Origin: a virus
Taxonomy: Duplodnaviria; Heunggongvirae; Uroviricota; Caudoviricetes
Reading direction: 5' to 3' (one strand)
Virus record (IMG/VR): IMGVR_UViG_2534681703_000017
Length of the DNA stretch: 36,962 nucleotides
This document shows positions 17,703-17,883 of the stretch, piece by piece. Positions within the stretch are counted from its first letter, which is position 1. Every line of letters starts with the position of its first letter. The notes under the pieces are model-generated. The model was not told where the DNA came from, did not search any database, and was given only the letters and a program-made list of their open reading frames with translations. Position numbers and translations under genes: made by a program.

Positions 17703-17854
17703 ATGGCCAGAAACGCGCTGTAATCGTCTTTGACGACATAAACGCCTCACGGATGAGGCATTACAGCACCGCACCCCATAAATGTCGTCAGAATCGTTTT
17801 TAAAAGGGTTTTAAAAACGGTTTTATTTCCACTTTTATCCTTTCGCGTTATGGC

Positions 17855-17883
17855 AGGGTGCTGAACACCCTCCACAGTACCCC
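17855..17883. promoter_or_regulatory. Conserved late-region motif, copy B (AGGGTGCTGAACACCCTCCACAGTACCCC), perfect dyad AGGGTG-CTGAA-CACCCT
   Basis: 15-mer GTGCTGAACACCCTC is identical to 29789-29803 and about 85 percent identical to copy A over ~28 bp. Confidence 0.45.

Follow-up and report, generated by a model that had tools for sequence, protein, structure and literature searches.

A candidate strong gyrase site next to a late promoter in the central G-I gap of a Mu-like enterobacterial prophage

Prophage context and limits of the gap

The window, meaning the whole 36,962-nt stretch of DNA that was analysed, contains a nearly entire Mu-like transposable prophage with the Mu gene order. 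It encodes a repressor on the minus strand (173-850), a small ORF assigned to the Ner position by its placement (989-1261), transposase A (1270-3312), B (3331-4224), and GemA, holin, portal, F, T, tail and baseplate proteins. A Mor/C-family activator gene lies at 9627-10094 (PF08765 match; Mor family protein in the E. coli M8 annotation), and the large terminase subunit is placed at 12744-14402 by position relative to that annotation. In 55 complete E. coli genomes there are copies of the prophage at 90-96% identity, and the exact I protein is present in 34 blocks of the assembly index, one NCBI assembly among them. The orthologous prophage of E. coli M8 is about 37.4 kb long and is bounded by fadR and a disrupted ycgB. 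The window begins within the left-end repeats and its right end is missing by about 0.5 kb; the transposase end-binding repeats of the phage group are of the type TTTTGCGCTCAAWTCTGG(GC) (window 1-20; L132 7300-7370 and 44620-44700). In E. coli M8, a DNA-methyltransferase gene of 741 bp (L132 30778-31518) separates the DUF1804 gene from the large terminase gene; it is apparently missing from the window (12709-12744).

The gap under study separates a G-like virion morphogenesis gene (17151-17702, plus strand; PF05069, E=1e-25; annotated RefSeq orthologue), which is the final gene of the upstream late operon running from holin to G, from an I-like protease/scaffold gene (17912-19027, plus strand; PF10123, E=3.5e-100). 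A preliminary description of this DNA had given the gap as about 155 bp, a figure that arose because GTG 17858 was taken as the start of I. The I reading frame is indeed open from that codon. The start of the RefSeq orthologue is the ATG equal to 17912, and the upstream ATG is out of frame in the Trabulsiella and Photorhabdus relatives, where it runs into a stop. On the strength of the RefSeq start and the frame in these relatives, the gap therefore ends at 17911. The non-coding gap is real, but its true extent is 209 bp (17703-17911), compared with 196 bp for its counterpart in Mu. Fixing the start of gene I is also of value for annotation.

Two sequence features reported earlier are found as described: the GCCTCA-CGGA-TGAGGC hairpin at 17744-17759, and the AT-rich, near-palindromic tract GTTTTTAAAAGGGTTTTAAAAACGGTTTTATTT at 17796-17828, where a repeat finder returns nested inverted repeats. 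The same tool lists the inverted repeats GCTGTAAT/ATTACAGC at 17717/17760 and AATCGTTTTTAAAA/TTTTAAAAACGGTT at 17792/17809. An 18-nt pair at 17722-17739/17782-17799 is 78% complementary and includes the perfect 9-nt core TGACGACAT/ATGTCGTCA (17731/17782), and two of the four copies of TTTTAAAA in the 37-kb window fall within the gap. An Rfam scan of 17500-18100 gives no match at E<=1, and a scan for sigma-70 and terminator consensus sequences calls nothing in the gap.

Late promoter of the I operon

The 54 nt between GTG 17858 and ATG 17912 hold the promoter of the I operon. The promoter is headed by the box GTGCTGAACACCCTC at 17858-17872 (plus strand), which is presumed to be bound by an activator of the Mor/C family. 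Exact or one-mismatch copies of the box are located at 10437-10451 ahead of the holin gene, at 17858-17872 ahead of I and at 29789-29803 between the gp45 and gp46 homologues, each heading a late operon (lysis/head, I/tail and gp46/baseplate, respectively). The consensus is GTGCTGAAC(A/T)CCC(T/C)C, also given as GTGCTGAACNCCCNC. No further matches of that quality are found in the non-coding DNA of the window, and the same three copies are present in E. coli M8. In nearly all enterobacterial relatives (27 of the 29 IMG/VR loci that have at least 53% I identity), GCTGAAC keeps a constant distance of -51/-52 to the I ATG.

Each box is accompanied by a NANNNT hexamer (TACCCT, CATCAT and CAGACT) exactly 41 nt from the box start. 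For I, this -10-like hexamer is CATCAT at 17899-17904 (plus strand), which is kept as CATCAT or TATGCT in relatives, and transcription would start at about 17911, adjoining the ATG. The box would then be centred near -46, as in Mu promoters of the Mor/C type. No sigma-70 consensus promoter is called by the scan and no -35 element is present at the late promoters; a search by eye for an ECF-sigma consensus gave no convincing match. The distance from box start to ATG is 54 nt for I and 53 nt for gp46, and neither ATG 17912 nor the gp46 ATG is preceded by a Shine-Dalgarno sequence. Because the predicted starts coincide with the start codons, the I and gp46 mRNAs are predicted to be leaderless, that of I possibly with a 1-nt leader. 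The first late promoter differs from the other two in having a leader of about 47 nt (10480-10536), which carries the inverted repeat AAGGCAC...GTGCCTT ahead of the holin gene.

A late promoter of the I operon is thus well supported. The preliminary description had suggested a late promoter region in the gap and had let the gap end at a conserved late motif. Its right boundary (17857/8) is the exact start of the repeated box, and the occurrence of the box at three operon heads upholds the promoter itself, but nearly all of the promoter (17858-17911) lies to the right of the interval that was reported because the start of I had been misplaced.

The arrangement resembles that of the C-dependent late promoters of Mu (Plys, PI, PP and Pmom) in having, in several operons, a shared box some 40-55 nt upstream of the start, a weak -10 element without a -35 element, and a Mor/C-family activator gene just upstream of the first promoter. 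It differs in the box itself, which is GTGCTGAACNCCCNC here and CATAACCCC in Mu; the Mu C recognition sequence is absent from the window, and the specificity of the activator therefore probably differs. Further differences are that the third copy in the window is located between the gp45 and gp46 homologues rather than inside N, that the window shows no copy of the mom type, and that Mu I has a ribosome-binding site whereas the I and gp46 mRNAs of the window are predicted to be leaderless. These results define a late-promoter box for a widespread group of Mu-like prophages of E. coli and other enterobacteria and predict leaderless late mRNAs in them, without overturning current understanding.

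Compound hairpin downstream of G

The left part of the gap contains a compound hairpin at 17711-17768 (plus strand), whose outer stem is GCTGTAAT/ATTACAGC and whose inner stem is the GCCTCA-CGGA-TGAGGC element. Its predicted fold has an energy of -20.7 kcal/mol (z=-3.4 relative to shuffled sequences) and is not followed by a U-tract. The left arm, AAACGCGCTGTAAT, is common to the canonical terminator of sister phages, which has the form AAACGCGC(UG)-loop-(CA)GCGCGUUUUU, folds at -11 to -15 kcal/mol and occupies the same place. The right arm and U-tract of this terminator are gone in the lineage of the window, where about 36 bp with the GCCTCA hairpin stand in the former loop.

Among 19 relatives, the inner stem is paired in 100% of the sequences, with two C-to-U wobble changes; in 5 of the 19, one pair of the outer stem is disrupted. 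The hairpin is absent from L063 (IMG/VR 2645727635_000006), a close relative. Judged from these alignments, the GCCTCA hairpin looks like a lineage-specific, rearranged remnant of a terminator and not like a conserved functional core.

L063 is a mosaic with a junction at about window position 17753; its sequence is unrelated to the window on the left and nearly identical to it on the right, which places a recombination breakpoint inside the hairpin. The 9-bp inverted repeat TGACGACAT/ATGTCGTCA (17731-17739/17782-17790) flanks both the hairpin and the cleavage core predicted below. One of its pairs switches between A-T and G-C (7 versus 7 sequences), a convincing change on both sides, but the neighbouring pair is mostly mismatched. 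This pairing could reflect a cruciform, RNA pairing or only linked variation.

A near-invariant T/A block

The most conserved part of the gap to the left of the promoter is the block GTCAGAATCGTTTTTAAAAGGGTTTTAAAAACGGTTTTATTTCC at 17787-17830. For its analysis, the I locus and its upstream flank were collected from 43 genomes and 79 IMG/VR contigs, and variable columns were counted in the 19 close relatives. Only 2 of the 44 columns of the block vary. For the remainder of the left gap the count is 34 of 84 (Fisher P=7e-6), and for the coding flanks it is 71 of 409 (Fisher P=0.03). Further A/T patches in phase with the block follow at 17831-17857 (TTTTAT at 17833-17838, TTT at 17841-17843 and TTAT at 17848-17851), and this segment is less conserved (7 of 27 columns variable). 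By this comparison of aligned sequences, the block is under strong purifying selection.

Phages with an I protein 53-66% identical, namely prophages of Intestinirhabdus, Buttiauxella, Trabulsiella, Photorhabdus and Xenorhabdus in which the remaining gap has diverged, retain the core of the block, TTTTTAAA..GG.TTTAA..GGT. Three islands are left in these diverged prophages: AAACGCGCTGTAAT just after G, AATCGTTTTTAAA(A/C)GGG(G/T)TTTAA...GGTT, and GCTGAACNCNCTC at a fixed 51-52 nt ahead of the I ATG. The second and third islands are absent from these positions in relatives with an I identity of 47% or less.

The T-to-A junctions of the block and the patches that follow it are located at 17801/2, 17812/3, 17824/5, 17836/7 and 17849/50, giving a period of 11-12 bp; the corresponding patch centres are 17801, 17813, 17824.5, 17835.5 and 17849.5. 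The gyrase motif has a shorter period, 10.75 bp. A Fourier analysis of the A/T pattern ranks the arm of the window 6th in the window and that of Mu 2nd to 3rd, and was discarded as a test for the site, being too unspecific, with coding regions yielding 12-bp harmonics. The T/A units were also considered as transposase end repeats and rejected in that role; the end repeats are of the TTTTGCGCTCAAWTCTGG type.

At the RNA level, a 16-bp A-U hairpin with a U-rich tail behind it is predicted for 17790-17825 (-12.3 kcal/mol, z=-3.8 relative to shuffles), and in the lineage of the window the block may also terminate the upstream late operon in this form. The block is nevertheless conserved without RNA folding in two relatives (L003, z=+0.3; L005, z=-1.6) that have a separate canonical terminator, which points to a role of the block at the level of DNA.

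Placement of a candidate gyrase cut

Gyrase preference was scored with an approximate symmetric matrix, fitted on 200 kb of W3110 to the published scores of 416 Topo-Seq cleavage sites, with its register checked by the G at position 0; the cross-validated r is 0.82 and the residual sigma about 1.2. As a control, the mapped cut of Mu is the best position in the Mu gap (99.97th percentile). It is given as 17879/80 in the Mu record and falls at 17876/77 as the best matrix position. Genome-wide, the approximate matrix ranks the true Mu site about 5th and the published 130-bp matrix (Sutormin et al. 2018, PMC6379681) ranks it 1st. Neither a count-based nor a regression matrix placed the Mu site first genome-wide, and the matrix was therefore used for local placement and offset tests only. 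A match by GC/AT class to the published 133-bp gyrase consensus was also tried and rejected; the Mu site was not in its top matches.

The best position in the gap of the window is 17759, with a score of 8.5 (99.8th percentile) by the approximate matrix, which is exceeded at several coding positions in the window. The predicted 4-bp staggered cut is 17759-17762 (about +/-3 bp), within a presumed G-segment core of about 17743-17778. Position 17759 lies 38 bp to the left of the T5A4 unit; in Mu, the corresponding distance between the cut and the aligned T5A3 unit is 35-36 bp. An offset of -35 to -38 relative to the T5 unit also scores best in the gap, or among its top three positions, in most relatives. 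When scoring is restricted to the matrix's left arm and core, with the block excluded, diverged sequences at this offset average 5.62 (n=13) against a background of 2.88+/-1.99, and resampling gives P<5e-5 for sequences that are not phylogenetically independent. A score of 8.5 within 209 bp is not unusual alone and is notable only through this fixed geometry. The matrix result is suggestive, and is taken as supporting and not decisive evidence.

Comparison with the Mu strong gyrase site

The preliminary description had stated that the strong gyrase site of Mu lies between G and I at the genome centre, had suggested that the present gap might hold an equivalent, and had proposed an alignment of the two. 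In the Mu record, the gap contains a predicted terminator at 17908-17953 and the promoter PI at 17977-18043. Local alignment matches the block of the window to Mu 17912-17962 with a score of 23, joining TTTTTAAA, CGG, TTTTAT and TCCTTTC. The match is collinear with the Mu right arm, but it is weak, with 11 of 500 shuffles (about 2%) scoring as high. Sliding the A/T pattern of the Mu right arm along the window implies a position 0 at 17761 (z=3.9). Counted from a position 0 of about 17760, the A/T patches of the window are at +18, +37, +49, +61 and +73, and those of Mu are at +15, +36, +49, +60 and +74. A first manual alignment, which set the T5A4 unit against the first T6A4 unit of Mu and implied a cut near 17782-17786, was dropped because the collinear alignment to the second Mu unit, which the matrix supports, was preferred.

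Both loci sit close to the genome centre between G and I, and the gaps measure 209 bp in the window and 196 bp in Mu. The conserved block is at about 50.8% of the length of the E. coli M8 prophage and about 48% of the window. Both also have a phased A/T right arm with a putative terminator overlapping it and the late I promoter beyond, and a cut, mapped in Mu and predicted in the window, 35-38 bp to the left of the aligned T5A3-4 unit. They differ in that sequence identity is low, that the first T6A4 unit of Mu corresponds to a shorter ATAAAT (17778-17783) in the window, that the two units of the window form a near-perfect palindrome, and that the presumed core of the window has a GC hairpin in its left half.

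In 2004, Oram and Pato reportedly assayed candidate central gyrase sites from other Mu-like prophages by substituting them into Mu (as cited in PMC10052514 and PMC3820752). A TATTTAACGG-type unit is common to Mu, the window and a gap of the Sakai type (L126). In a review (PMC10052514), the Mu site's right arm is described as essential and the left arm as dispensable. That review relates that, of the alternative sites placed at the centre of Mu by Pato in 1999-2003, only the O157:H7 Sakai prophage site promoted replication; the sites tried included those of Mu-like prophages, and most did not substitute for the Mu site (PMC10052514). Given that these substitutions mostly failed, a central site need not be 'strong'. 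For the Pseudomonas phage Ab30, a central gyrase site has been proposed by position, from an insertion-free segment (PMC5977238). The present site resembles those of other Mu-like phages, including Ab30, in that a central intergenic position led to the proposal of a gyrase site, and differs in that substitution tests or an insertion-free segment are available there, whereas the site of the window is predicted only.

Interpretation and alternative explanations

The best explanation of the gap is a central cis-acting module consisting, from left to right, of a terminator remnant, a candidate gyrase site and a late promoter. In this module, the block at 17787-17830 is, with a probability somewhat better than even, the right arm of a central strong gyrase site. 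The location between G and I, the near-central position, the phasing of the block, its conservation and the geometry of the matrix match all favour such a site indirectly, and it is plausible but unproven. It would be an expected feature of a Mu-like phage and not a new kind of element. [quoted passage not shown] Processive supercoiling from the genome centre would then bring about synapsis of the prophage ends for replicative transposition.

The block might instead be nothing other than the intrinsic terminator of the upstream late operon, which would reduce the gap to an ordinary junction of terminator and promoter with no relation to gyrase. The A-U hairpin and U-rich tail of the block RNA fit this explanation, as do the loss of the right arm and U-tract of the canonical post-G terminator in the lineage of the window and the predicted terminator that overlaps the right arm in the Mu record as well; termination alone could account for part of the conservation. 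However, the core is kept in L003 and L005, where a separate canonical terminator exists and the block is unfolded, and its near-invariance reaches the loop and the flanks beyond the stem. The stem is almost entirely A-U and is not called by the terminator scan, and termination leaves unexplained the gyrase-like left-arm and core sequences at a fixed offset in diverged relatives. A terminator as the sole function is accordingly considered rather unlikely.

Slightly less probable again is that the block is a sequence- or bend-specific site of another protein, for instance HU, IHF, Fis or one encoded by the phage, and that it would serve as an organiser of the prophage domain or of the late promoter and not as a gyrase arm, a role that is likewise thought improbable. 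Base-by-base conservation over 44 bp does exceed what a generic bendability signal needs, the Mu domain requires IHF, Fis and HU besides the gyrase site, and a similar arrangement is present near the left end of the prophage. That similarity is, however, no stronger than one other low-complexity match, and inspection by eye reveals no convincing IHF (WATCAANNNNTTR) or Fis (G-N13-C) consensus. The distance between block and box ranges from 63 to 109 bp among relatives and the two remaining late promoters have no such block, so the block is not a promoter-upstream element. Least probable of all, and hardly credible, is a functionless operon spacer in which A/T richness and a hairpin have arisen by chance. 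In its favour, the window has other stretches of such A/T periodicity, and the GCCTCA hairpin is confined to one lineage and is dispensed with in L063. Against it, conservation of the block exceeds that of the flanking coding sequence and reaches across genera, and the promoter box stands at three operon heads with fixed geometry. The conservation data already contradict a chance spacer.

On balance, a gyrase site is modestly favoured ahead of a terminator alone and of a site for another protein as the reason for the conservation of the block. If it works, it would be a second natural strong gyrase site, diverged in sequence, compact and palindromic, and distributed across several enterobacterial genera. 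It would also help to define what sets the right arm apart, a question left by the work on Mu that is current in structural papers on gyrase.

A similar arrangement near the left end

The sequence at window 50-84, ATCGCGTTTTAAATGCTTTTAAAACGGGCTTTAT, is identical to the central block at 25 of 34 positions and has the same order of units, with the layout T4A3-N-T4A4-CGG-TTTAT. It is a top non-self match both in the window and in E. coli M8, at the strength noted above for low-complexity sequence. Were the T5A4-GGG-T4A5 block more than a gyrase-wrapping arm, namely a dedicated architectural element with its partner at window 50-84, one protein might bind or bend both and so connect the centre of the prophage physically with attL during formation of the prophage domain or the transpososome. 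Nothing of the kind is described for Mu, and this is regarded as a long shot. The segment is flanked by the transposase end repeats and the end of the repressor gene, and by analogy with the L1-L2 spacer of Mu it could serve as a bendable spacer.
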